From: Candidatus Woykebacteria bacterium
GTDB lineage: Bacteria > Patescibacteriota > Microgenomatia > Woykebacterales > RBG-16-39-9b
DNA length: 64,000 bases
Direction: 5' to 3'
NCBI GenBank assembly: GCA_040876265.1
Contig: JBBDPN010000002.1
Coordinates: 170,510-234,509 of the forward strand
Shown here: piece after piece, positions 6,977 through 44,188 of the stretch
Layout: each line of letters opens with the position of its first letter
Numbering within the stretch: the first letter of the stretch is position 1
Translations under genes and position numbers: made by a program
The notes under the pieces: model-generated
The model's input: the letters and a program-made list of their open reading frames with translations, nothing else
What the model was told of the DNA's origin: nothing
Database searches by the model: none

Positions 6977-7084
6977 AATCCTAACTGAGGCTAAATTATA
7001 ACATATTTATCCATTAAGCCTAGTTGGAGACAGGGGATTTTGTGAATAAATATGTTGATACAACAAGAAATAACAGTCTAGTGA

Positions 7085-12908: not shown

Positions 12909-13684
12909 TTGTGGAAATTAAATAAGTTCCTAGCGTTTTGAGCGGTAATTTTGGCAGCTTTTTCTAGCGACCACCCTTTGAGGTCTGCAATAGTAACCGC
13001 CACCATTTTAACATAAATAGGTTCATTTCGCTTCCCTCGACGACCTTTCGGGGACAGAAACGGAGAATCGGTTTCAGTTAAGATTCTGTTATCAGGCAGT
13101 TTCTTAGCAACGTCTCGTATGTAATCGTTACCTTTGTAAGTAATGTTTCCAGAAAATGATATGTATAGACCCAGGTCAAGGAAATTTTTTGTTTGTTCCC
13201 AACTACCCATGTAACAATGCATCAAGCCAGTAGTTTTGCCTTTATATTTTTTAATCTGGTTGTATATCTCGTCATACGCATCTCGGCAATGAAAAAGGAT
13301 TGGTTTACCTAACTCACCCGCAAGATTAATTTGTTGCTCGAGAATTTCTACTTGCGCCTTTAAATTGGGCTTACGATAATTCTTGTAGACATGTTTATCG
13401 AGCCCAATTTCACCGACGGCAACCACCTTTCCCCTTTTGCCTAAGGATTCTAGAGTTTGGTAAGTTTCTTTGCTCCATTGACCGACATGATGAGGATGGA
13501 CGGCAACGGAGGCGAAAAAATTATCAAATTGTTCCGAGAGCTTTACGCTTTTTTCACTTGCATCCACACTAGTACCAACATTGATCAATGCTTCGAGTTC
13601 CTTCGAATTTCTTTTTGTAACCTCGTCGCGATCGCCATCATAAGCCTTAAACTGCAAATGGGCGTGGGTATCTATTAGGTTCAT
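12905..13684 (-). CDS. tatD: TatD family metal-dependent hydrolase
   Basis: MNLIDTHAHLQF start. Conserved His/Glu/Asp ladder of TatD. 259 aa. Confidence 0.85.
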   Translation of the reverse strand: MNLIDTHAHLQFKAYDGDRDEVTKRNSKELEALINVGTSVDASEKSVKLSEQFDNFFASVAVHPHHVGQWSKETYQTLESLGKRGKVVAVGEIGLDKHVYKNYRKPNLKAQVEILEQQINLAGELGKPILFHCRDAYDEIYNQIKKYKGKTTGLMHCYMGSWEQTKNFLDLGLYISFSGNITYKGNDYIRDVAKKLPDNRILTETDSPFLSPKGRRGKRNEPIYVKMVAVTIADLKGWSLEKAAKITAQNARNLFNFHK

Positions 13685-15749: not shown

Positions 15750-16793
15750 ATGGATCAGAATACTTTACTGTTTATTTTAATAGCCGTGGTGGTGGTTGGT
15801 TTTATCTTTCTGTTTCGGCAATTCCAGTCTATCAAAGAAGAAAAGGACAAGGATAAATCTAGTGAGGTTCTCATGAAATGGCTAGAGGAAATGAGAACCA
15901 GTGTCGATAAAAGTACCGAGACTATGCAACGCAGACTCGATGCGACGAACAAAGCGATTAATGAAAGGTTGGACAATGCCGCTCGGGTCATTGCCGGGGT
16001 TGGCAAAGAAGTAGGGGCCATGAGTGAAATTGGACGTAGCATGAAAGACTTGCAGGACTTTCTGCGTAGTCCAAAACTGAGAGGTAATATCGGCGAGCAA
16101 GTGCTGAAAGAACTGCTAGGCCAGTTTTTACCAAAGGAAAGTTTTCACCTCCAGTACCGATTTCGCAGCGGAGAAATTGTTGACGCGGCGATAAAGACAG
16201 AGAGCGGCATTATTCCGATCGACTCAAAATTTCCGATGGAAAATTTTAAACAAATGATGAAAGCCGAAGGTGAAGCGGAGAAAAAGGTTTATGAAAAAGA
16301 GTTTGGCCGAGATGTAAAGAAACATATTGACGATATCTCTAAGAAATATATTTTACCCGAAGAAGGCACGATCGATTACGCTCTGATGTACGTGCCTAGC
16401 GAACCTGTTTACTATGAAATTATGAGTAATATGCCTGAACTCTCTGATTACGCCCACAAAAAGCGAGTATTGCCGGTTTCTCCATCCACTTTTTACGCTT
16501 ATATGCGGGCGATTTTGATGAGTTTTGAAGGAAAAAAGATAGAGGAACGCGCTCGCGCTATCCTCGCCGCCCTTCGCGGTATAAAGGGAGACAGTGAAAA
16601 ATTTGGCGACGCTTTGCGTGTTCTCACCAAACATATTAACGATACAAAAAACACTAGCGACTTAGTCAACTCTCGCTACATTTCTCTACACTCCAAAATC
16701 GACACCGCCGGAAGTTTAAAAAGCGCTGACAAAAAAGCCCTCGAAGAACCACTAGCAGTAGAAGAAGTCGAAGAGATTACGGAAGAAACTTAG
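15750..16793 (+). CDS. rmuC: DNA recombination protein RmuC
   Basis: N-terminal TM, long coiled-coil, and the RmuC C-terminal region (IDSKFPMENF ... YALMYVPSE). Confidence 0.8.
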   Translation: MDQNTLLFILIAVVVVGFIFLFRQFQSIKEEKDKDKSSEVLMKWLEEMRTSVDKSTETMQRRLDATNKAINERLDNAARVIAGVGKEVGAMSEIGRSMKDLQDFLRSPKLRGNIGEQVLKELLGQFLPKESFHLQYRFRSGEIVDAAIKTESGIIPIDSKFPMENFKQMMKAEGEAEKKVYEKEFGRDVKKHIDDISKKYILPEEGTIDYALMYVPSEPVYYEIMSNMPELSDYAHKKRVLPVSPSTFYAYMRAILMSFEGKKIEERARAILAALRGIKGDSEKFGDALRVLTKHINDTKNTSDLVNSRYISLHSKIDTAGSLKSADKKALEEPLAVEEVEEITEET

Positions 16794-16806
16794 GAGGAGA
16801 GCACTA

Positions 16807-17049
16807 ATGGTTATAGAACAAGATGGGTTCGCAACCATCGAAGGTACCAGAGTGAGAGTCAAGGATATTGCGGACCAGTATCAGCGCGGCCTTGATGAGA
16901 TAGTTGCAGAGAAGCTGCAGGACTATTTCCCGCACCGGAGCATAGAGTAGATCCAAGCCGCAATTTCCTACTGGCGTGAGAACTCGGAGAAGATCGACGA
17001 GGAAATCCGCGCCGAAAAGGAAGTCTTTTTGGAAGCGTCGAAAGGATAG
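16807..17049 (+). pseudogene. DUF433-family (antitoxin-like) gene with in-frame TAG at 16948-16950
   Basis: The N-terminal 47 codons (IEGTRVRV...DYFPHRSIE) and the downstream in-frame segment (IQAAISYWREN...) together match the DUF433 consensus (GTRIPV ... YPxLTxEDIxAALxYA). The TAG sits at the conserved D/E position. A GGAGGAGAG ribosome-binding site lies 5 nt upstream. Confidence 0.5.
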
Positions 17050-17076
17050 CGGGAAGAACCTAGAAGGGAGATCAAT

Positions 17077-17310
17077 ATGGAGTGGCAGGACTGGCTCGTA
17101 TGGGGCGTTCTTGCTACCTGGCTTGGTGGAGGGTTGGTGTACTTTGCTCACTTGACTCACCAAATTCGGGCCGAGACAGGGAAGTGGCTCCACCCAACCG
17201 AACCTGGAGCCCAGATCCTCACCATCCTCATATGGTGGGTGATACTAGCGGGACGCTTTGCTTCGTGGATAGGAGGAGTGATGAAACGAAGGAATGGGGA
17301 GGTCTTGTAA
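17077..17310 (+). CDS. small hypothetical membrane protein (2 TM), G+C-rich islet
   Basis: 77-aa ORF with a GGGAG ribosome-binding site 7 nt upstream. Followed by an intrinsic terminator (ACGCCG...CGGCGT + T6) at about 17326-17364. Confidence 0.35.
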   Translation: MEWQDWLVWGVLATWLGGGLVYFAHLTHQIRAETGKWLHPTEPGAQILTILIWWVILAGRFASWIGGVMKRRNGEVL

Positions 17311-17514
17311 TCCAACCGCGCAACGACCGCCCTTAACGCCGACTCACACGAGCCGGCGTCTTTTTTGGAAACGGGTCGTTTCTCTTTTCCTTCGACTTCG
17401 CTCTCTTCGAGCCTGAGCGATGAGGCTCAAGCCTCAGAGCCGAAGGCAGGACAAGTTTCCGCAGTTTCCTCTCATCTTGACGCACAAATAATATTGGTGT
17501 ATGTTATATACACC

Positions 17515-17802
17515 ATGAAAAGGACCCAGCTTTATTTACCGGAAAAAACTTTGAAAATTTTGAAAAAAGAGGCGGCCGAGACTAAAAGGAGCGTTTCCGA
17601 AATCGTACGGGAAACTCTAGATGAAAGATTAAGAGAAAGTAGAGGCAACCCGGCTAGATTTTTAGTTGATATGGCCTTGCGAGCCGAACGGCTTGGCTAC
17701 AGCGGTCCAGTCGATTTAGCTGAAAAACACGATGAGTACCTTTATGGTAAAAAATCTCCTAAATGGGGTTATCTCTACAAAAATAAAAAGAAGAAAAAAT
17801 GA
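17515..17802 (+). CDS. vapB: ribbon-helix-helix (CopG/VapB-like) antitoxin with lysine-rich tail
   Basis: MKRTQLYLPEKTLKILKKEAAETKRSVSEIVRETL is a classic RHH N-terminus. Its stop overlaps the PIN gene start (ATGA). Confidence 0.6.
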   Translation: MKRTQLYLPEKTLKILKKEAAETKRSVSEIVRETLDERLRESRGNPARFLVDMALRAERLGYSGPVDLAEKHDEYLYGKKSPKWGYLYKNKKKKK

Positions 17803-18194
17803 TTTTTGTAGACACCAGTGCTTTTGTAGCTTTAAATAACCCTAAAGACCCACATCACAAAAAATCACTTCAAGTAAGTTTAAATCTAGAAAAAGAATCA
17901 GCGCCCTTTTTTACCACGAACTACATTTTGGCAGAAAGCTATACTGTAATAAGCCAAAAAGTTGACAAAGAAGCCAGCGTTTATTTTAGAGAGAATTTGG
18001 ATTTAAGGATTCGTATTGTTAGAGTGGGTGAAAGTTTAGAAGAGACTGCTTGGGAAATTTTTAAAGAAACACGCTCAAAAAATGTTTCCTACGTAGACTG
18101 TACTTCTTTTGCGGCGATGAAGGCTTTTAATATCAAGCGGGCCTTTGCCTTCGACGATGATTTTAAAAGAGCCGGATTTTCTTTATTGACGTAA
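17799..18194 (+). CDS. vapC: PIN-domain toxin VapC
   Basis: MIFVDTSAFVAL start and conserved acidic residues of PIN domains. 131 aa. Confidence 0.7.
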   Translation: MIFVDTSAFVALNNPKDPHHKKSLQVSLNLEKESAPFFTTNYILAESYTVISQKVDKEASVYFRENLDLRIRIVRVGESLEETAWEIFKETRSKNVSYVDCTSFAAMKAFNIKRAFAFDDDFKRAGFSLLT

Positions 18195-18257
18195 CCGTAG
18201 AATCCTTACCCTCGAAGAACCCGAAGAAATCACCGAGGAGTAACGACACACTATAGG

Positions 18258-18286
18258 TTGACATTCGAACCTATTTCCTGTATAAT
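18258..18286 (+). promoter_or_regulatory. perfect consensus sigma70 promoter TTGACA-N17-TATAAT
   Basis: TTGACA at 18258-18263. Exact 17-nt spacer. TATAAT at 18281-18286. About 40 nt upstream of the next ORF and its ribosome-binding site. Confidence 0.5.
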
Positions 18287-18328
18287 TCCCATCATCAAAT
18301 TAGCTAAATAACCTTGAAAGGATAGAGA

Positions 18329-18592
18329 ATGTTCGACGAACCACGTCAAGGGAGCATCGTCGGAAAAGTACTAAATGTACTCCTCGACCACATTGATGAG
18401 TTCGTGACGGAGGATCATATCTTAACAGAGGCTAGCCTCTGGGAGGAACACCTCCATCCGAACTTTCAGCGACAGCGTGTAGTCGCTGCGATGACTACCC
18501 TGCGGGGCAGGTACCGCTGGAAGATCGACACGAAGCGTAGTGGTGAGTACCCGAGCGAGGGTAACACCGCCTACCGACTACCTACACAGTAA
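18329..18592 (+). CDS. hypothetical small protein (ORFan), G+C-rich islet
   Basis: 87-aa ORF. AAGGA ribosome-binding site. Codon usage is clearly G+C-richer than the flanking genes. Confidence 0.4.
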   Translation: MFDEPRQGSIVGKVLNVLLDHIDEFVTEDHILTEASLWEEHLHPNFQRQRVVAAMTTLRGRYRWKIDTKRSGEYPSEGNTAYRLPTQ

Positions 18593-18606
18593 GGAGGGAA
18601 ACTGTC

Positions 18607-18903
18607 ATGCCGTGCAACAACAGGACCGTTCAGGAAGTGGTGGAGGAATGGTTGCGACAAGCAAGTCGAAGCCTCGAAAACCAGCTTCCTTGGAAGAGAG
18701 AGGAACTGCTGGTAGAGGCGATACGGGAGTCACTCGGTGATCCTCGCCTAGCTTTTGCCACTAGAGTCGGGGGAAAGCTGGTCATCCCGCCACCGCACTC
18801 GATACCGGTCCCGCAAGAAATGGAGAGACGCCGCCTCATTTTGAGGATGGCGTTGACTCTGCTCACGGAGATGGAATTACTCCGTTATCAAAACCAACCC
18901 TAG
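18607..18903 (+). CDS. hypothetical small protein (ORFan), G+C-rich islet
   Basis: 98-aa ORF. AAGGAGGG ribosome-binding site 6 nt upstream. Followed by a hairpin (GAAACGACC ... GGTCGTTT) with a T-run at about 18990-19045. Confidence 0.4.
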   Translation: MPCNNRTVQEVVEEWLRQASRSLENQLPWKREELLVEAIRESLGDPRLAFATRVGGKLVIPPPHSIPVPQEMERRRLILRMALTLLTEMELLRYQNQP

Positions 18904-19083
18904 GGCGAGCGTTGAAGATGCTGGAAACAGCGATGCCACGACCCCTAGGAGCTCCTAAGTAAATCAAGGGATTGATTTTCTTAGGAGGAGAAACGACCCC
19001 GTGTAGTCTTGTATGAAGTGGTGGTCGTTTTTCTTTTTCCTTCACTTCGCTCAGGATAAGTTATCTGGTAAAATGGTTTATCC

Positions 19084-22038
19084 ATGAGTAAAGTACTAGA
19101 GGGTTTGAACAAACAGCAAAAAGATGCAGTAATGACGACGGAAGGACCATTACTGATAATCGCTGGAGCTGGGACTGGAAAAACCACCGCCATTACCCGC
19201 CGCATCGCTTACCTTATTGAGCAAAAATTGGCTAAACCATCAGAAATTCTCGCACTCACCTTTACCGAAAAAGCAGCCGGAGAGATGGAAGAAAGGGTCG
19301 ATATTCTGGTTCCCTATGGTTACATTGACACTTGGATCTCTACATTTCACTCTTTTGGCAACCGCGTCTTGCAAGAAAACGCTATAGATCTAGGTCTATC
19401 CCCGGACTTTAAAGTCCTCACCCGCCCATCCCAAATTCTTTTTTTCCAACAAAACCTTTTTGCTTTTGATCCCTCTTATTATCGGCCACTTAGCAATCCA
19501 ACGAAGTTTATCGAAGCGATTTTGCAATTCATCAGTCGCTGTAAGGATGAAGACATTTCACCGGCAGACTACAAAAAATATGTCAGAAAATTGAAAAAAA
19601 CTACTCCAAGGAAACTTGGTTTAACGAAGAAGGAATGGGAGACCGAGGTCAAACGACAGGAAGAACTTGCTAATGTCTACGAAAAGTACGAGAAACTAAA
19701 AACAAATGCTGGACTTGTGGATTTTGGCGATCAGATTACTTTGACACTTAGACTTTTTCGCGAAAAACCAGGGGTTCTCAGAAAATACCAAAAACAATTT
19801 AAATACGTCCTTGTGGACGAATTCCAGGACACCAACTGGGCTCAGGACGAACTCGTCAAATTACTGGTAGAACCAAAGGATAATATCTGTGTGGTGGCAG
19901 ATGACGACCAGAGTATTTACCGTTTTCGCGGCGCGGCCATCAGCAACGTGCTGGAGTTTAAAAAGACTTACCCAAAAGCAAAAATAGTTACTCTGCTGGA
20001 AAACTTTCGCTCCGGGCAACCGATTCTCGACTCCGCCTACCGTCTGATTCGTCATAACGATCCAGATAGGCTTGAAGTACGTGAAAAAATTGATAAAAAA
20101 TTAAAATCAGTAAAAAAGAATCCGCCGGCTGGTGGATCTGGCCCGCCAAAAGAAATTTATGCTGAGACTCTTAGCGTTGAGGCTGATGCTATCGCAAAGA
20201 AAATTAAAGATTTAACAAAAAGGGAGAAGCTGGCCTACAAAGATATCGCAATTTTAGTGCGGGCAAATGCCCACGCCGATCCCTTTTTGCGAGCTCTCAA
20301 CATGAAAGGAATTCCCCACAAATTTGTTGGCAGTAGCGGCCTATACGCCCAGGAAGAAGTGAAGCTTTTAATCTCTTTCTTAACTGCAATTTCCAATTTC
20401 GACGATTCGCCAAACCTTTACAACCTTGCTTCGAGTGAAATTTATAAATTGCCTCTGAAAGACGCGATCGCGGTGATGGATTGGGCAAAAAGAAAAAGCA
20501 AGACCCTCCGTTATGTCCTCACCAAAATTGACGATCTAGAAGAGATCGAGCTAGGTGCGGAGGCGAAAGAGATAATTAAAAAGATAAACAGCGATTTAGA
20601 TTCTCTCGTTGATTTGTCCCGTAAAGAACCAGTCGGCCGGGCGCTCTATGAATTTTTGAAGAGAACTGGGTTCTTATCGCGGCTTGAACAAAAAGGCAAC
20701 GTGGAGGCGGAGATAAAGATCCAAAATATTGCCAGGTTTTTCGATAAAATCCGCGAATTTTCCGAGATTGCCCAAAATGAATCGGTGCGCGCCTTTACCG
20801 ATTGGCTCGCGGTTATGAGAGGTGCGGGAGACGACCCCGCAACTAGCGAATTTGATCCGGACACGAATGCAGTAAATATCATGACTGTTCACTCTGCCAA
20901 GGGTTTGGAATTCCCAGTGGTTTTTCTGGTGAATTTGGTTTCAGACAGGTTTCCCTCAAGAGAGAGGAGAGACGTTATTGCTATTCCGGCCGAACTAATA
21001 AAAGAAACACTTCCGGCTGGGGACTTTCACATGCAGGAGGAAAGAAGACTTTTTTACGTGGGTATGACGCGGGCGATGGATCATTTGTTTCTGACCTGGT
21101 CGCGTGATATTGGCGGAAAAAGGACCAAGAAAGTTTCTCCTTTTGTTCTTGAGGCACTGGATAAAACAGTCAGCAGTGCTCTGGTGGAAAAAACGAGCGC
21201 GCTAGAAAAAATCCACCGTCACGCTGGCCATACAGCCTCGGCTAGCAACCTACCTCAAGCAGGCGTAAAAGTAATTAAACTTACTCAAGGAGCAGTTGAT
21301 GATTACCAAACGTGCGCTTATAAGTATCGCTACGTTCATGTTTTGAGACTGCCTATTCTTCGTCACCACGCTGTGGTTTACGGAGCCGCGCTCCACATCG
21401 CTGTGGCCGCTTTTTACCGGGCCAAAATGGCTGGTAAAAAAATGCCACTCGCAGCACTCCTAGCAATTTTTGAAAAAGCCTGGACTGGCGAAGGCTTTCT
21501 TTCACAAGAGCATGAGGAGAGAAGATTAGCACAAGGGAAAAAGATCTTGGCTGATTTTTGGAGACGTGAAAAAGATAAAAAACAAAAACCCACCTTTATT
21601 GAAAAGGATTTTCGTTTCAGCGTCGGCGGAACTATTGTTACCGGTAGGTTCGATCGGGTGGATGTCGGCAGAAAAAAGGTGAAAATAATTGATTTCAAAA
21701 GTACTGAGGGCAGAAGCAAGGAAGAGATAGAAAAAAACGCCAAAGAAAGTATCCAACTTCGCGTCTATGCGTTGGCTTATTACAAAAATAGTAATCCGCC
21801 GGTAGTTCCAGATTTTGTCGGCATTTACGATCTTGATAGCGGAGTAGTGGGTGGTTACAAACCTACAAAGAAACATCTTGAAAAAACAGAAGAAGAGATC
21901 AAAGAAACTGCAAAAGGAATTAAAAATAATCTACAAGAGGACAATTTCCCAGCCAACCCAAAATACTTTGGTAGAGTCCCGGCGTGTTATTACTGTGCAT
22001 ACAATAGTATTTGCCCTTTCTCTTTAGTTAGAAGATAA
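19084..22038 (+). CDS. UvrD-family superfamily-1 helicase fused to a C-terminal RecB/Cas4-like PD-(D/E)XK nuclease with Fe-S cysteines
   Basis: Walker A GAGTGKTT. UvrD motifs (VDEFQDTN, TVHSAKGLEFP). C-terminal GRFDRVD ... IIDFKSTEG ... QLRVYALA nuclease motifs. Cysteines C...CYYCAYNSIC. Confidence 0.8.
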   Translation: MSKVLEGLNKQQKDAVMTTEGPLLIIAGAGTGKTTAITRRIAYLIEQKLAKPSEILALTFTEKAAGEMEERVDILVPYGYIDTWISTFHSFGNRVLQENAIDLGLSPDFKVLTRPSQILFFQQNLFAFDPSYYRPLSNPTKFIEAILQFISRCKDEDISPADYKKYVRKLKKTTPRKLGLTKKEWETEVKRQEELANVYEKYEKLKTNAGLVDFGDQITLTLRLFREKPGVLRKYQKQFKYVLVDEFQDTNWAQDELVKLLVEPKDNICVVADDDQSIYRFRGAAISNVLEFKKTYPKAKIVTLLENFRSGQPILDSAYRLIRHNDPDRLEVREKIDKKLKSVKKNPPAGGSGPPKEIYAETLSVEADAIAKKIKDLTKREKLAYKDIAILVRANAHADPFLRALNMKGIPHKFVGSSGLYAQEEVKLLISFLTAISNFDDSPNLYNLASSEIYKLPLKDAIAVMDWAKRKSKTLRYVLTKIDDLEEIELGAEAKEIIKKINSDLDSLVDLSRKEPVGRALYEFLKRTGFLSRLEQKGNVEAEIKIQNIARFFDKIREFSEIAQNESVRAFTDWLAVMRGAGDDPATSEFDPDTNAVNIMTVHSAKGLEFPVVFLVNLVSDRFPSRERRDVIAIPAELIKETLPAGDFHMQEERRLFYVGMTRAMDHLFLTWSRDIGGKRTKKVSPFVLEALDKTVSSALVEKTSALEKIHRHAGHTASASNLPQAGVKVIKLTQGAVDDYQTCAYKYRYVHVLRLPILRHHAVVYGAALHIAVAAFYRAKMAGKKMPLAALLAIFEKAWTGEGFLSQEHEERRLAQGKKILADFWRREKDKKQKPTFIEKDFRFSVGGTIVTGRFDRVDVGRKKVKIIDFKSTEGRSKEEIEKNAKESIQLRVYALAYYKNSNPPVVPDFVGIYDLDSGVVGGYKPTKKHLEKTEEEIKETAKGIKNNLQEDNFPANPKYFGRVPACYYCAYNSICPFSLVRR

Positions 22039-22140
22039 AACTTGACTTAGCTAGGCAGAAGTTGCCTAGCGCAGGATACGTGAATACTCGAGAAATTAAG
22101 GAGCCCGCAAATTTCGAGCGTATGTAGTATCCTATAGGAT

Positions 22141-22169
22141 TTGACTTTAAGCCTATTTTGTGATATTAT
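22141..22169 (+). promoter_or_regulatory. near-consensus sigma70 promoter TTGACT-N17-(TGa)TATTAT
   Basis: TTGACT at 22141-22146. 17-nt spacer. Extended -10 TGATATTAT at 22161-22169. Confidence 0.4.
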
Positions 22170-22384
22170 ATACCCGTAATTAAATAATACCACTGCCAGC
22201 TTCCTGAGAAAAAATTCTCGCGAAGTAGCCAGCAGAATGCAGGAAATCACGAAAGACACAATCTTGAGCGACGAAGCGCATTCTTTTTTTGTAGGGTTAA
22301 ATCTGATTACTACAGGTTGTTAGTTTCAACCCCGCAACTTGAAAAGTAGAGTCTTGTGTTGGCCCTTAGTAAAGGAGGCGTTTT

Positions 22385-22822
22385 ATGGCCAACTATTCAA
22401 GGCGGTTTCCGAGAGATCCGTACGAAGGGTTGCTGACTGAAGCACTCGTAGCCTGCGGTTACGAGGTAGTTCTGTCCAGCGGCCTTGAAGACGAGATCTT
22501 CGGTGAGGACGCTCGGGATACCGAATACGATGTTCCTTGGGACTTCTATGTCGGTAACGGAAACAACGGCCGGTACGCGGAAAAGCTTGCAAAGGCTGAA
22601 GCAAACCGAGTCGCTGTTCTTCAAATCCCAGTCGGTCTTCTGGATGATCTATGTCTTCCCTCCCGAAGGGCCCGAGCCCTGACTCAGCTAGCAGGTCTCT
22701 ACGATGAGGCACTTAGCAAAGCACGTAGTCAGAGGCTTCGGAGTCGACAGGAGTTGGAAGCGGAGAAATCCAGTTGGTTGACGTTCGAGCGCCAACCTCG
22801 CCGTGTTCTCCAACCCGCCTAA
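22385..22822 (+). CDS. hypothetical protein (ORFan), G+C-rich islet
   Basis: 145-aa ORF. AAAGGAGG ribosome-binding site 6 nt upstream. The antisense ORFs here are attributed to high G+C. Confidence 0.4.
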   Translation: MANYSRRFPRDPYEGLLTEALVACGYEVVLSSGLEDEIFGEDARDTEYDVPWDFYVGNGNNGRYAEKLAKAEANRVAVLQIPVGLLDDLCLPSRRARALTQLAGLYDEALSKARSQRLRSRQELEAEKSSWLTFERQPRRVLQPA

Positions 22823-23035
22823 GAACCAAATACCTGCCAGGGGGAGTACTGATATTAGCGAAAGCCAATCAGTCTGGTAACCAACAACCTCCCTCCGCTT
22901 CGCAAGTCGTCAAGGACTTGCTCAGGAAATAAAAGGAGGTGAAAACCATATTCCTGGGCAGCTCCTTGGCAAGATGCCAAAGCGGACTATCTCACCCGTT
23001 AGTGAGGTGACAGTTACCCTAAGGAGGGATATCGA

Positions 23036-23413
23036 ATGGTAGACAGCAACATGTATGGTTGCGCTCTCGGAATCTGCGATGTTCTGGGTGCACCCCAGGA
23101 CACCTATACGTTCCGGGGTGACAACGACCCCTCGCCTCTGCTCTGGGTGGTCGTGGACCTGGACAGCAATAGGGATCCACTCAAGCGGCAGTACAAAACC
23201 TTGTGTTGCCATCACAGGGGTAAGGCAGCCAAGGCGCTCGAGAGTAAGGGTCGCAGCGTCACAGTGATGCCTTTGCACGCCTTCCTCGAGAAGCGCGCGG
23301 AGTTCGAAGCCGAAGCGCAGGCCAAGCGGGATCAGGAAGAAGCCGAGGCTGCAGCCTTCGAGGACCTTTGGAACACTCCTACCGCAGAGGCACCGGCCGT
23401 TACGACCGTGTAG
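23036..23413 (+). CDS. hypothetical Cys-containing protein (ORFan), G+C-rich islet
   Basis: 125-aa ORF. TAAGGAGGG ribosome-binding site 7 nt upstream. Confidence 0.4.
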   Translation: MVDSNMYGCALGICDVLGAPQDTYTFRGDNDPSPLLWVVVDLDSNRDPLKRQYKTLCCHHRGKAAKALESKGRSVTVMPLHAFLEKRAEFEAEAQAKRDQEEAEAAAFEDLWNTPTAEAPAVTTV

Positions 23414-23645
23414 CCCCAGCCAAACCAAGCGACCATCTCCAAATCACTCAGAAAAGAGACACCCGTGATTGGTGAGCACGGTTAACGTGCAGTGATTAAC
23501 CGCTCGAGGAATGAATGAGCGGAAAATAAAGATCAGGGAGGTACTGGCCTATAACATATAGGAAGTCTGGTTGGAAGAAGTCGAACTTCTCAAAAAACCT
23601 CCCCAACCTTTCTTACAACCGCCAAAATAGGTGGTTTTTCTTTGG

Positions 23646-36477: not shown

Positions 36478-36765
36478 TTGGTATACTTGAATTATATGTT
36501 GAGGAATATTATTGCCGTAGCCGTCTCAGTATTGGTGGGGATTGTTCTATTGTTTTTCGCGGTTGTATTTCTTTTGCTCTCGGCTGGTTTTGATAACTCC
36601 AATCCTTCACTTTCGGAAATCCTTCCAGGGGTAATTGCGTTGATAATAGCTATTGCAGCCGCCTCAGGTTTAAGTTGGGGGATAAGTAAGAACTGGAAAA
36701 TAGTTTTATTGACAGTCTCAATAGTAGTGTTGATATCCTTCCCAATTTTTGGTTTGGGGTTCTAG
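36478..36765 (+). CDS. small hypothetical membrane protein (3 TM)
   Basis: 95-aa hydrophobic ORF. Confidence 0.3.
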   Translation: MVYLNYMLRNIIAVAVSVLVGIVLLFFAVVFLLLSAGFDNSNPSLSEILPGVIALIIAIAAASGLSWGISKNWKIVLLTVSIVVLISFPIFGLGF

Positions 36766-41729: not shown

Positions 41730-42028
41730 CGGATCTCCCCCCCAAGCTTAGATGACAGAACTGTTATAGGATTATAACACCCCTTACCACCAACGTGAGT
41801 GTACTAATAATTGAAAATTGTTTGTTGATAATTATTCAAATTTACTATAGCTTATTGACAGAAGCGGTAATTTGGTGTACAAAGCTCTTGCCAGATGTCC
41901 TACAAAACCCTGTTTTTTATAGTTCTTCTTCTTGTTGGTGTAGTCCTAGCCTTCCTCTTTCTAGCTGGATTTGTCCGCCAGTCTTAAATTAGCAAACACT
42001 TGAAATATCTGCTAAAATCCTCTTCATA

Positions 42029-43123
42029 ATGTCAACAAAAAAAGATTATTATGACGTCCTCGGCGTCTCCAAAACAGCCTCAGATTCTGAAATAAAGAGC
42101 GCTTATCGTAAAAAAGCACGGGCTCATCACCCGGATGTAGATAAATCTGCGGACGCCGAGAAAAAATTTAAAGAAATAAACGAGTCTTATCAAGTGCTTT
42201 CTGACCCTCAGAAACGAGAAGCCTACGACCGTTTTGGTCACGATGCCTTTCGCACTGGTGGAGCCGGAGCCCCAGGGGGCTTCAGCTATCAGTACTCCCC
42301 AGGTGTAGATTTCAACTTTGACTTTGGTGGGTTTGCCGATCCCTTTGAAATATTCGAGCAGTTTTTTGGTGCTCGTTCTCCGTTTGGTGGTTCAGCGCGG
42401 CGTGGACCGAGAACAGGCGAGGACCTTCATTACGAGATTATCATCCCCTTTGAGCAAGCGGCTTTTGGTGTAGAAAAGAAAGTTGAGCTGGAGCGGCACG
42501 AAAACTGCTCGGTGTGCGGTGGTTCTGGAGCAGAGCTGGGAAGCAAAAAGACTAAGTGCCCTACATGCAATGGAAGAGGTCGTATCCAGCAAGCAACCCA
42601 ATCTATTTTTGGTAACATAGTTACATCACGTACGTGTCCTACTTGCGGTGGTGAGGGTGAAGCGATAGAGAAAAAATGCCACCAGTGTAAAGGTTCTGGC
42701 CGTACAAAGGCAATCGCCGAGAAGACAATTAAGATCCCCGCTGGAGTAGATGATGGCGATACTATTCGGTTTCAAGGCTTGGGCGAGGCCGGGGAACGCG
42801 GCGGCGGCTACGGTGATCTTTATCTTTCGATCCGTGTCTTGCCTCACAAAGAGTTCAAACGCCGCGGGTTTGACGTTTACTATGAACAGCCGATTTCTTT
42901 TTCCCAGGCCGCTCTGGGGGATACGATCGAAGTGACAACTCTTGACGGAGAAATGAAATTAAAAATTCCCGAAGGTACCCAGACCGGAACGGAATTCCGC
43001 TTAAAAGATAAAGGTATAAAGCACGATAGTTCTCGTGGTGACCAATACGTGCGTGTCAAAGTACAAACCCCGACACGGCTTTCTTCAAAACAGAAAGAAG
43101 CGTTGAAAAATCTAAGGGATTAA
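42029..43123 (+). CDS. dnaJ: molecular chaperone DnaJ
   Basis: J-domain with HPD. G/F region. Four CxxCxGxG zinc-finger repeats. C-terminal domains. Confidence 0.9.
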   Translation: MSTKKDYYDVLGVSKTASDSEIKSAYRKKARAHHPDVDKSADAEKKFKEINESYQVLSDPQKREAYDRFGHDAFRTGGAGAPGGFSYQYSPGVDFNFDFGGFADPFEIFEQFFGARSPFGGSARRGPRTGEDLHYEIIIPFEQAAFGVEKKVELERHENCSVCGGSGAELGSKKTKCPTCNGRGRIQQATQSIFGNIVTSRTCPTCGGEGEAIEKKCHQCKGSGRTKAIAEKTIKIPAGVDDGDTIRFQGLGEAGERGGGYGDLYLSIRVLPHKEFKRRGFDVYYEQPISFSQAALGDTIEVTTLDGEMKLKIPEGTQTGTEFRLKDKGIKHDSSRGDQYVRVKVQTPTRLSSKQKEALKNLRD

Positions 43124-43143
43124 ATAAGGCGAGGAATGAAAGA

Positions 43144-43196
43144 GGCGCAGAGTCGCTCGCGAGCGTCTTCGGAGAGACTCTGCGCCCCTGGTTTTC
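43144..43196 (+). terminator. intrinsic terminator after dnaJ
   Basis: 11-bp stem GGCGCAGAGTC/GACTCTGCGCC (43144-43154 and 43176-43186) enclosing the palindrome GCTCGCGAGC. Followed by GGTTTT. Confidence 0.5.
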
Positions 43197-44188
43197 CCGC
43201 GGACCTCATCGATAGAAACGGCAGTCAGCCATGGAGGTTCTACCGAGGGAGGCGTTGATCAAGCAGAGTCTTTGGCCTTACGTCGACCTGCAATGTCCAA
43301 AGGATCTGCCAGAGAGTTTTTGCCTCGCGAGCTAGCGCCAAGCTCTAGCGAAACAGATGTTAACGAAAACTCTTTGCCCACGATCCCACAACACATCCCT
43401 CTCCTACTGCGGCATTTGCCGATGAGGACGTGCAGGCAAATAGTAGTGGGGTATTTTACATGTTTGGGAAGTAAATGTCAAAATATATTGATAAGACTTT
43501 CGAAATTGGTAATAGAAAAGTTGAAGGCGCATCAAAGAGGATATTACACCTCACTGATGCGCCTACTCGATTGCTGACGCTTTCCAGGCCGCCCCAACCC
43601 GAAAAGCGTCATATCCACCATTGGCGGCGGACTAGAAGGAGGTCGCCCGATACTTTCCAGTTAAGGAGCACCGGTTTGATTTCCTAAGGGGTATAAGGAA
43701 AGATTCCAAGATACCCCGGTTGATTTCAGACGCTCCTGAGTCTGAGTGATTGCTCGCCAGGGGGTGCGGCGGTGAGACAGAGGAGCGTCGAACCACGACA
43801 GTTGCGGCTTCTGTCGAGGCCAAATTTAAGCCAATCGGTCAAAGAGTTTGAGCTGTTGCGACCGATCGGGTCTGCTCTATTGTCAGGCAGCAGACCATTC
43901 CTACTAGCAGGGTATTAGGCGTTGTCGAAGATTGCTAAATTGCCTAATCCGTGCTCGTACCGCTGGTATATAAAAGATAAGTGCTGAAGCTGAGTGTAAA
44001 CTCCAGTTGGCCCGGGCGGGAGGGGGATGCCCATAAACTGGAAGCCGTACCCAGCATATTACAAACCTCTGCTCGAGTAAATCGAACAGAAGTCAGCTAC
44101 CCCTTCCTCGTTTCTTCACCTTAACTTAACCACTTTTTTGCTTGATTGTCAATATATGTTTGTCGGTCAAGATTTTTCGCCTAGTTAC

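Follow-up and report, generated by a model that had tools for sequence, protein, structure and literature searches.

Direct repeats between rmuC and a helicase-nuclease gene in a Woykebacteria genome probably close stacked gene cassettes

Genes and features of the locus

The DNA analysed here (the window) is a 64,000-nt stretch of contig JBBDPN010000002.1 from a Candidatus Woykebacteria bacterium (GCA_040876265.1), and our subject is the gap that separates rmuC from a helicase-nuclease gene in it, where two short direct repeats enclose accessory genes. A sequence-only reading had taken this gap for a composite accessory locus, and the repeats for the att-like or terminator-associated footprint of a single integrated cassette. 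We consider it probable that the repeats are the 3' portions of two copies of a multi-copy Woykebacteria module, which closes units made of a conserved sigma-70 promoter and one or two G+C-rich, mostly orphan genes, and that the gap is a stack of such units. Coordinates are those of the window, the features described for the rmuC-helicase locus lie on the forward strand, and L numbers denote the loci or contigs of relatives used in the comparisons.

The conserved left flank is rmuC (15750..16793; Pfam RmuC, E=1.7e-56), whose last ~56 nt (16738-16793, starting with the 13-mer CCCTCGAAGAACC at 16738-16750) form one of two rmuC 3' ends present here. The conserved right flank encodes a protein with UvrD and PD-(D/E)XK nuclease domains by Pfam (19084-22038), preceded by a predicted extended -10 promoter, TGGTAAAAT (19066-19074); relatives keep TGnTAnAAT 9-12 nt before the ATG.

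Directly after rmuC lies a G+C-rich DUF433 gene (16807..17051) with an in-frame TAG at 16948-16950. Its first 47 codons score 21.7 bits against the Pfam family and a read-through translation 32.6 bits (residues 7-55, across the stop), and the TAG is most likely a recent nonsense mutation or the mark of a pseudogene, and possibly an assembly error. It is followed by an open reading frame (ORF) of 77 aa (17077..17310; GC 0.53-0.56), the translation of which has two hydrophobic stretches and no Pfam or PHROG match, nor any resemblance to a known family. This ORF has a terminator of its own according to RNA folding (17336..17366; CGCCGACTC-ACAC-GAGCCGGCG followed by T7). The vapBC operon comes next (17477..18194), with the promoter TTGACG-17-TATGTT and a palindromic operator at 17495-17515; the gene of the RHH antitoxin (17515-17802; Pfam RHH_1, 5.3e-8) overlaps that of the PIN toxin (17799-18194; Pfam PIN, 3.7e-16) by 4 nt (17799-17802).

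Right after vapC there is a leftover rmuC 3' end (18197..18243), encoding ...LEEPEEITEE* with the stop at 18241-18243, and then a cassette promoter (18251..18286) composed of a CTATAGG palindrome, TTGACA, 17 nt and TATAAT, a 12/12 match to the consensus. Two ORFans follow, each with a Shine-Dalgarno (SD) site: orf87 (18329-18592; 87 aa; G+C at the three codon positions, GC1/2/3, of 0.61/0.39/0.61) and orf98 (18607-18903; 98 aa; GC 0.55; GC1/2/3 of 0.63/0.40/0.62). G+C reaches 0.53-0.57 at 16900-17450 and 18350-19000 against ~0.42 in the window, and is 0.34-0.39 in vapBC. Large non-coding RNAs were considered for the G+C-rich islands and are ruled out by the coding-type GC1/2/3 and the SD sites.

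Database searches say little about the cargo. Among 5.8 billion proteins, orf98 matched only itself, and orf87 itself plus one repeat protein at 23% identity, which we treated as non-informative; neither has a Pfam or PHROG family. Of the cargo only vapBC had PHROG matches (Arc-like repressor families for the antitoxin and one weak family of unknown function for the toxin). The Pfam scan of the gap ORFs returned RmuC, DUF433, RHH and PIN only, and thus no integrase, transposase or other recombinase. Together with the translations, it agrees with the genes called in the sequence-only reading, namely a DUF433 remnant, a membrane ORF, vapBC and an ORFan pair. A possible third, eroded rmuC remnant at 17053-17060 amounts to 8 nt of identity only and is not significant.

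The repeat pair

The direct repeats match at 17375-17403 and 19024-19052, and one extra G on the left extends them to 17374-17403 and 19023-19052. Their gapped local alignment has 28 identities, 1 substitution and 2 single-base indels, giving a score of 43, which was reached in 0 of 300 dinucleotide-preserving shuffles of the two halves of the rmuC-helicase gap (mean 23.0, standard deviation 2.4, maximum 32). Their near identity, as claimed from the letters, is thus borne out, and so is their direct orientation around vapBC and the G+C-rich gene pair. Small corrections concern the second copy, for which the start had been given correctly and the end one base too far (19053), and its distance from the helicase ATG, which had been put at 30 nt and measures 31 nt.

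A hairpin precedes each repeat, as had been noticed, and both were recovered by a scan and by RNA folding: GGAAACG-GGT-CGTTTCT before copy 1 and GAGAAACGACC...GGTCGTTTTTC, with a loop of ~24 nt, before copy 2. Both copies have the form of an intrinsic terminator (a stem-loop with G+C and a U tract on the transcribed strand) and are predicted to act as such, in line with the suggestion that the repeats are terminator-associated.

Aligning the two contexts, a check that had been proposed, revealed that the repeat is longer than first described. AGGATAAGTT (19053-19062) lies directly 3' of copy 2, and its counterpart in copy 1, AGGACAAGTT (17448-17457), is set off by a 44-nt imperfect palindrome (17404..17447) with no counterpart in copy 2 and no second copy in the window or in the relatives' loci searched. 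Both copies therefore share the 3' extension AGGAYAAGTT. The right half of the repeat as first described is in fact part of a separate small repeat, CCTTCGACTTCGCTC...AGGAYAAGTT, hereafter the 22-nt unit. Over the terminator arm and this unit, the two copies are identical at 36 of 40 positions.

A two-hairpin module recurring in Woykebacteria

Copy 2 (19023-19052) consists of the 3' arm of a terminator and the unit, and that terminator belongs to a complete 3' module at 18945..19040 (fold z=-3.55), which begins 42 nt after the stop of orf98. This larger conserved element came to light through short matches to the repeat elsewhere in relatives. The module is composed of a long hairpin, P1 (consensus CCUAAGCAAAUC-variable top-GGUUUUCUUAGG), followed at once by an intrinsic terminator, in which AGGAGGARAARCGAC forms the A-rich 5' arm and base-pairs with GUCGUUUUUCUUU. 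It measures ~95 nt in copy 2 and ~80-110 nt across the family. In the window, a 16-bp P1 (18952-18987; CTCCTAAGTAAATCAA/TTGATTTTCTTAGGAG, 16-nt arms with 94% complementarity) is followed by AGG and by the A/U-tract terminator hairpin (18988-19040), where the A-rich 5' arm is paired to GGTCGTTTTTCTTT.

Copy 2 has the conserved lower stem of P1 (CCUAAGcAAAUC / GGUUUUcUUAGG) and, directly after P1, the terminator hairpin AGGAGGARAARCGAC...GYCGUUUYUCUUU. Copy 1 lacks the P1 stem and is a 5'-truncated module (17367..17403), which keeps the terminator loop, the 3' arm and the T tract (GGAAACGGGTCGTTTCTCTTTTCC) before the 5' half of the unit.

A metagenome scan that required only TTAGGAGGARAMRCGAC-N6-36-GYCGTTTYTCTTT returned 42 loci, several contigs having 2-4 matches each. 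All 42 loci share the P1 5' arm CCTAAG(C/T)AAATC, which the pattern did not require, and a variable hairpin top that covaries. With a covariance model of the module (R1), 65 copies were found in 413 kb of these Woykebacteria loci, some of them in tandem arrays with a spacing of 513-1138 nt (four in a row in L078, 6469-9797; others in L065 and L068). In the 64-kb window R1 found a single full copy (67.5 bits, E=4e-12), and in 634 kb of rmuC-centred loci from many Microgenomates it matched almost only loci of the Woykebacteria type, the exception being a weak 27-bit match in L022.

In the 65-copy alignment, which was fitted to the model and to that extent favours the structure, 96.6% of the cells are paired and compensatory changes occur in 18 of the 26 pairs, with 0 of 500 shuffles reaching any of these measures; slid controls of the same alignment are ~50-66% paired. 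A fold based on a MAFFT alignment yields the same structure. G-U pairs are frequent on the cassette-sense strand across the modules, which indicates that the structure exists in RNA.

The module had no counterpart in the databases searched. Rfam 15 recovered only tRNA-Cys in the window and nothing significant in 16700-19200 or in the gaps of L043 and L045, and we found nothing relevant in the literature on Woykebacteria or on cassette repeats of the Candidate Phyla Radiation (CPR). Scans of 2.9 million viral contigs (IMG/VR) gave two chance matches inside coding DNA and then none, so a phage origin is unsupported.

Cargo and promoters of the modules

The modules are tied to G+C-rich cargo. Across 45 distinct modules, the segment from -450 to -100 has a mean GC of 0.520, versus 0.413 downstream, and a GC of at least 0.50 is found in 35 of 45 upstream segments, versus 3 of 39 downstream ones and 5.4% of window segments. 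An open frame on the same strand precedes 43 of the 45, ending a median of 161 nt ahead of the end of the T tract; these frames have a median of 126 codons, a GC of 0.53 and coding-type GC1/2/3. Hardly any of the predicted proteins are related to one another (66 singletons). A diversity-generating retroelement or a paralogous surface-protein family was considered and is ruled out by this lack of relationship. Pfam recognised an alpha/beta hydrolase (in L075), DUF7736, a C-terminal aminotransferase fragment and a radical SAM protein (in L083), and nothing else. The aminotransferase match, at ~140-575 of L060, is confined to the last third of the class I/II aminotransferase family, at the C-terminus (Pfam positions 216-346 of 361), and suggests that some cargo may be captured gene fragments.

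A shared promoter, CCTATAG(T/G)-TTGAC(A/T)TT...CTATTT(C/T)TGCTATAAT, occurs 300-1000 nt upstream of 21 of 54 modules (~5% expected) and at most 250 nt downstream of 7 of 60 (background of 2% per 250 nt). The perfect-consensus promoter of the window (18258-18286) belongs to this family, being homologous to the promoters of at least 14 other cassettes and to the promoter found just after rmuC in L043 and L045. We did not retain a reading of CACTATAGG, which lies upstream of the -35 box, as a T7/K11-like promoter; the motif forms a palindrome (CCTATAGG) and, judged from its symmetry, is more likely to be an operator.

Recombinase genes were seen near two other modules. An rve-type DDE integrase gene (L078, 5224-6108) lies directly upstream of the four-cassette array, which ends at a tRNA gene, and an IS200-like Y1 transposase gene (Y1_Tnp) adjoins a cassette in L083 (853-1521). 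Homologues of neither were found in the window or in the other loci.

These results bear on an alternative explanation, namely that the repeats are ordinary terminators which resemble each other by convergence or through a genome-wide preference, with no link to mobility. Both copies do have a hairpin and a T tract, and A/U-tract terminators are common in bacteria of low G+C. Conservation extends, however, over ~80 nt and includes the P1 stem sequence, which termination does not need. Moreover, GGTCGTTTYTCTTTT with up to 2 mismatches occurs only four times in 64 kb, in the two copies, in a related terminator at 23630 and within a membrane ORF at 36561, the last of which is a chance occurrence. 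With one full module in the window and a strong association with G+C-rich, strain-variable cargo, a generic terminator motif scattered after unrelated genes is not what we observe, and we give this explanation very little credit.

The rmuC-helicase gap in related strains

The RmuC of the window is 100% identical to a protein from a Candidatus Woykebacteria metagenome-assembled genome and has many relatives at 80-92%; an exact-protein look-up led only to one Logan assembly, in which the arrangement is the same. The order metRS, membrane ORF, rmuC and helicase-nuclease is kept in the Woykebacteria-type loci that have those flanks. In 13 loci, the gap between the last two genes ranges from 0 to 3305 nt: they overlap in L009 and L010 and are separated by 7 (L011), 59, 187, 220, 312, 706, 806, 938, 1089 and 3305 nt in others, with 762 nt in L043. 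The gaps are usually richer in G+C than their own genomes. Since the gap varies in this way and the six cargo genes of the window are in none of the other rmuC-helicase loci, the description as a composite accessory locus stands.

In the closest relative, L043 (RmuC 90% and helicase 84% identical), as well as in L045 and L008, a module lies directly upstream of the extended -10 promoter of the helicase, as copy 2 does; in L043 and L045, moreover, the rmuC stop is followed at once by the same promoter as that of the window cassette. Copy 2 is orthologous to these modules and occupies the ancestral position upstream of the helicase gene. The search for an empty site, proposed as a test of the integrated cassette, revealed single-module states in L043, L008 and L045, but with other cargo. 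The window cargo was not found elsewhere as one unit, and the vapBC-remnant junction occurs with different cargo beside it.

The leftover rmuC 3' end (18197-18243) shares 97.2% identity with L043's live rmuC end across 36 nt, versus 79.5% for the rmuC bodies, and 90% with L008; the same remnant is found after vapC in L093. With the remnant right after vapC, there are two rmuC ends in the locus and likewise two module ends, arranged in the same order.

We reached the short contigs L090-L095 through VapC homologues with an identity of 87%. The window segment 17474-18266 has 85-87% DNA identity to these contigs and is colinear with L093-L095 at 87%. L093 reads, in order, rmuC end, DUF2283 gene, rmuC remnant, cassette promoter, 102-aa ORF, full module, vapBC, rmuC remnant, promoter and a leader of the L043 type. 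What follows the remnant in L094 and L095 is the L043 cassette (96% identity), although L043 itself lacks vapBC. The junction between vapBC, remnant and promoter is therefore old and shared, being colinear in L093-L095 and followed in L094 and L095 by the L043 cassette.

The cargo on both sides of this junction has been swapped. On the left, the window has the interrupted DUF433 gene and the 77-aa ORF, versus DUF2283 and ORF102 in L093; on the right, it has orf87 and orf98, versus ORF60 in the other strains. Compared with L043 and L094, homology on the right stops at 18266, inside the promoter, and resumes at ~18950, at P1. The right-hand replacement spans exactly the interval from the -35 box to P1, between conserved regulatory ends.

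On the left, copy 1 is 91.9% identical over 37 nt to L036 (8056-8092; E=3e-8), its module homology beginning only at 17367. In L093, a full module stands before vapBC, and copy 1 is colinear with it from the terminator loop, GGAAACGGGTCG, where the homology starts. Copy 1 is the orthologue of this L093 module, its P1 and 5' arm having been replaced by the 77-aa ORF and that ORF's own terminator.

The 22-nt unit and the origin of the repeat pair

The unit has the consensus CCTTCGACnnnGCTCAGGAYAAG and a length of 22-24 nt. It follows each module copy in the window, at 17389-17457, where the nested 44-nt palindrome splits it, with its 3' half at 17448..17457, and at 19039..19062 (CCTTCACTTCGCTCAGGATAAGTT), between the terminator and the helicase promoter. 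We found 17 matches in 920 kb. The unit occurs once or twice after the T tract in L036 (8078-8100), L045 (2433-2480, twice) and L048, it is present or absent among otherwise colinear junctions (L066 vs L050 and L065), and it forms inverted pairs in L083; other copies were found in L081 and, outside Woykebacteria, in the Microgenomates loci L026 and L015. It has no counterpart at the sites orthologous to copy 1 (L093) and to copy 2 (L043 and L008). From this distribution, the unit seems to behave as a small independent repeat of the REP (repetitive extragenic palindromic) type, often located right after the T tract of a terminator.

If the repeats were attL/attR-like cores, left by the site-specific integration of one cassette with vapBC and the ORFan pair, they would be expected in direct orientation around genes, as they are. 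Targeted insertion could also account for the position of the unit, which stands at exactly the same spot behind the T tract in the two copies as in L036, L045 and L048. Against this explanation, the same module ends 65 different cassettes, no recombinase is encoded in the gap, and those near other modules do not recur. The DNA between the repeats is not that of a single cassette either, since it holds the rmuC remnant and the junction common to strains with other cargo. Copy 1 is a truncated terminator rather than a symmetrical core site and is orthologous to the L093 module before vapBC, and copy 2 is at the ancestral place, as in L043, L045 and L008. We regard integration at att sites as highly unlikely, and the footprint of a single cassette described in the sequence-only reading is not upheld.

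The repeat pair could otherwise result from local duplication or gene conversion, the region upstream of the helicase gene (terminator 3' arm and unit) having been copied to the position before vapBC. The presence of the unit at both positions in the window only, L093 lacking it before vapBC and L043 before the helicase gene, and the identity of 36/40 would agree with such an event. Yet L093 already has the terminator arm of copy 1 at the orthologous position, which leaves only the unit to be copied. In addition, copy 1 resembles the units of L036, L066 and L081 as closely as it resembles copy 2, and the 44-nt insert is nested in copy 1 and missing from copy 2. On balance, we consider this explanation unlikely.

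Cassettes at other sites

Cassettes were also found at other hotspots, namely tatD|metRS, tRNA-Cys|next gene and helicase|femAB. A cassette separates tatD from metRS in L036, L039, L003, L048 and L084, and the two genes overlap by 4 nt in the window (13681-13684). In L036 (7256-7330) and L039 (7164-7215), the 5' flank of this cassette has an outward extended -10 element (TGATATAAT or TGGTATAAT) 7 nt before the ATG of tatD, which suggests that the insertion brings a replacement promoter for the displaced gene. The spacer after tRNA-Cys, empty in the window (6977-7084), contains cassettes in L075 and L007, the latter together with hicAB.

Between the helicase gene and femAB, the window has a second G+C-rich island (22039-23645; 0.50-0.60), which looks like a cassette of the same type. 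It comprises the palindrome ATCCTATAGGAT (22129-22140), TTGACT-17-TATTAT (22141-22169), two ORFans, each with a strong SD site (22385-22822 and 23036-23413), and the terminator AACCGCC/GGTGGTT+TTTTTCTTTGG (23617-23644); the only R1 match in the island is weak (12 bits). The 5' part of the island can be aligned with the 5' ends of the cassettes of L036 and L039. The composition profile also shows a raised G+C of 0.49 at 42000-44000.

Two further conserved stretches are shared by L043 and L045, whose cargo ORFs are unrelated. One is a 5' leader (L043, 9100-9250; L045, 1670-1800) with the pattern TTTAGAATCTTTCCAAGC...GGGATCTGCGCCC...GAAAAGAAGAAAGGAGGTGAGA-ATG and apparent compensatory changes; the second, of ~230 nt, is rich in G+C (L043, 9470-9700; L045, 2050-2290; …CCTGCAAAGCGGGCAACCGCAGTTA…GGGACGGCCTGGCAACAGAAG…CATCCATCCGGG). 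Both may be structured RNAs, with no match in Rfam.

Proposed explanation

Because the repeats belong to a hairpin-terminator module that closes cassettes in many genomes, we read the locus as a stack of swappable cassettes and not as an att-bounded element. A first unit would comprise the rmuC 3' end, the interrupted DUF433 gene, the 77-aa ORF with its own terminator and the truncated module (copy 1); a second one, vapBC; and a third one, the leftover rmuC 3' end, the cassette promoter, orf87, orf98, the full module (copy 2) and the helicase promoter. The third unit would be in the ancestral position, and the first and second would have been added at the rmuC 3' end, each of them supplying a new rmuC end.

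In each cassette, the module would terminate transcription and insulate it at the RNA level. Its A and U tracts would make the terminator bidirectional, so that in convergent settings the neighbouring gene would be insulated too. Modules, promoters and rmuC ends could also serve as portable homology for RecA-type recombination or for the integration of circles. If a circular or incoming fragment recombined by one crossover at an rmuC end or at a module, direct duplications would result exactly as observed; a double crossover in promoter and module would swap the cargo, and recombination between direct copies would delete a cassette. We infer recombination at the modules from the places where homology between strains breaks off.

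Several points weigh against this explanation. The evidence for recombination at the modules consists of breakpoint positions, and no circular or deletion variants were observed in the assemblies. Termination by the module and the activity of the promoters are predictions made from the sequence. No sequence with a differing gap structure and closer than ~80% in DNA (90% in protein) in rmuC was available, hence the order of the stacking events cannot be fixed. Finally, both window copies carry the unit right after the T tract, whereas the orthologous positions in L093 and L043 are without it, which calls for two insertions with the same preference or for conversion between the copies. To these may be added the fitting of the 65-copy alignment, mentioned above.

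Beyond this locus, we tentatively propose, as an idea with somewhat less than an even chance of being right, that Woykebacteria carry an undescribed system of hundreds of autonomous cassettes (shared promoter, G+C-rich foreign or orphan genes, P1 and terminator), inserted, stacked in tandem and exchanged at intergenic hotspots by recombination at conserved regulatory ends and with no dedicated integrase. In this system P1 would represent a new structured RNA/DNA motif that does more than support termination, for instance in the stabilisation or processing of mRNA or in recombination.

The genomes of CPR bacteria are small and streamlined, and their gain and loss of accessory genes is poorly understood. 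The module is a searchable marker of the flexible gene pool in the Woykebacteria lineage and a candidate new RNA motif absent from Rfam. It would also offer a concrete mechanism for gene flux without integrases, through recombination at regulatory repeats as in the PeSLs (promoter-early stem-loops) of T4. For annotation, the locus warns against taking every pair of direct repeats around cargo for att sites.

Comparison with known systems

The cassettes have features in common with several known systems. As in integrons with attC sites, diverse and mostly orphan ORFs are each followed by a conserved imperfect palindrome, tandem arrays exist (L078, L065 and L068), and toxin-antitoxin genes are interspersed. 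In contrast to integrons, there is no IntI or attI, the cassettes have their own promoters, and the copies are dispersed over many intergenic sites. The R''/R' cores (RYYYAAC / GTTRRRY) are absent from the aligned modules, whose arms are CCTAAGC.../...CTTAGG, and the T tract and sense-strand G-U pairs make the module a predicted RNA terminator, unlike attC. The lack of integrase and core sites and the promoters of the cassettes rule out the integron reading.

REP sequences and bacterial interspersed mosaic elements (BIMEs) are likewise short, palindromic, multi-copy repeats found after genes, with possible roles in termination, mRNA stability and recombination, and the 22-nt unit is like a small REP in its polymorphic presence, its inverted pairs in L083 and its nesting. 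The module differs in being longer, with two distinct hairpins, and in being tied to foreign-looking cargo rather than to core genes. No REP-associated tyrosine transposase (RAYT) is associated with it, a Y1_Tnp gene being near one copy only.

The vapBC genes conform to type II VapBC systems, with an RHH antitoxin gene that overlaps the PIN toxin gene by 4 nt and an own promoter with a palindromic operator. Here they appear as a passenger in the stack, with low G+C and neither the cassette promoter nor the 3' module, and homologues with 87% identity are at the same relative position elsewhere.

Phage morons are said to have been described by Juhala, Hendrix and others in 2000 as autonomous promoter-gene-terminator units of deviant base composition. 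The cassettes resemble them in having their own promoter and factor-independent terminator, in lying between conserved genes and in a G+C unlike that of the surroundings. They differ from morons in the lack of a prophage context and of PHROG matches for the cargo outside vapBC, and in the absence of the module from the 2.9 million viral contigs; morons, for their part, are not known to have one common conserved structured 3' element. With its two-hairpin 3' module, the Woykebacteria-specific cassette family is a variant of mobile regulatory cassettes or morons.

The closest analogue appears to be the PeSLs of T4-type phages, with a likeness of function and not of sequence. PeSLs are composites of a promoter and a stem-loop, repeated on either side of ORFans in hyperplastic regions; they bring about indels and replacements and give rise to mini-circles (Arbiol et al. 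2010, PMC2839356; Comeau et al. 2014, PMC4122927), and their mini-circles and promoter/terminator activity were demonstrated experimentally (PMC2839356, PMC4122927). In both systems, short motifs join a stem-loop terminator and a strong sigma-70-type promoter, and dozens of them per genome lie in hyperplastic regions beside ORFans. The breakpoints of indels and replacements between close relatives of these phages fall in the motifs; in the window, those of the cargo replacement relative to L043 and L094 fall at the promoter (18266) and at P1 (18950). The differences are that the host here is a cellular CPR bacterium and not a phage, with no sequence similarity between the motifs; that the terminator part is a ~80-nt two-hairpin element with a conserved P1; that the promoter lies either a few tens to ~200 nt downstream of it or at the cassette's opposite end, while PeSLs have their stem-loop within or beside the promoter; that the cargo is markedly G+C-richer than the genome; and that circles and activities were shown by experiment there, while the cassettes are known from assemblies. 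If the wider system tentatively proposed above exists, the Woykebacteria cassettes would be a cellular counterpart of the shuffling by phage PeSLs and would allow these tiny genomes to try out new genes.

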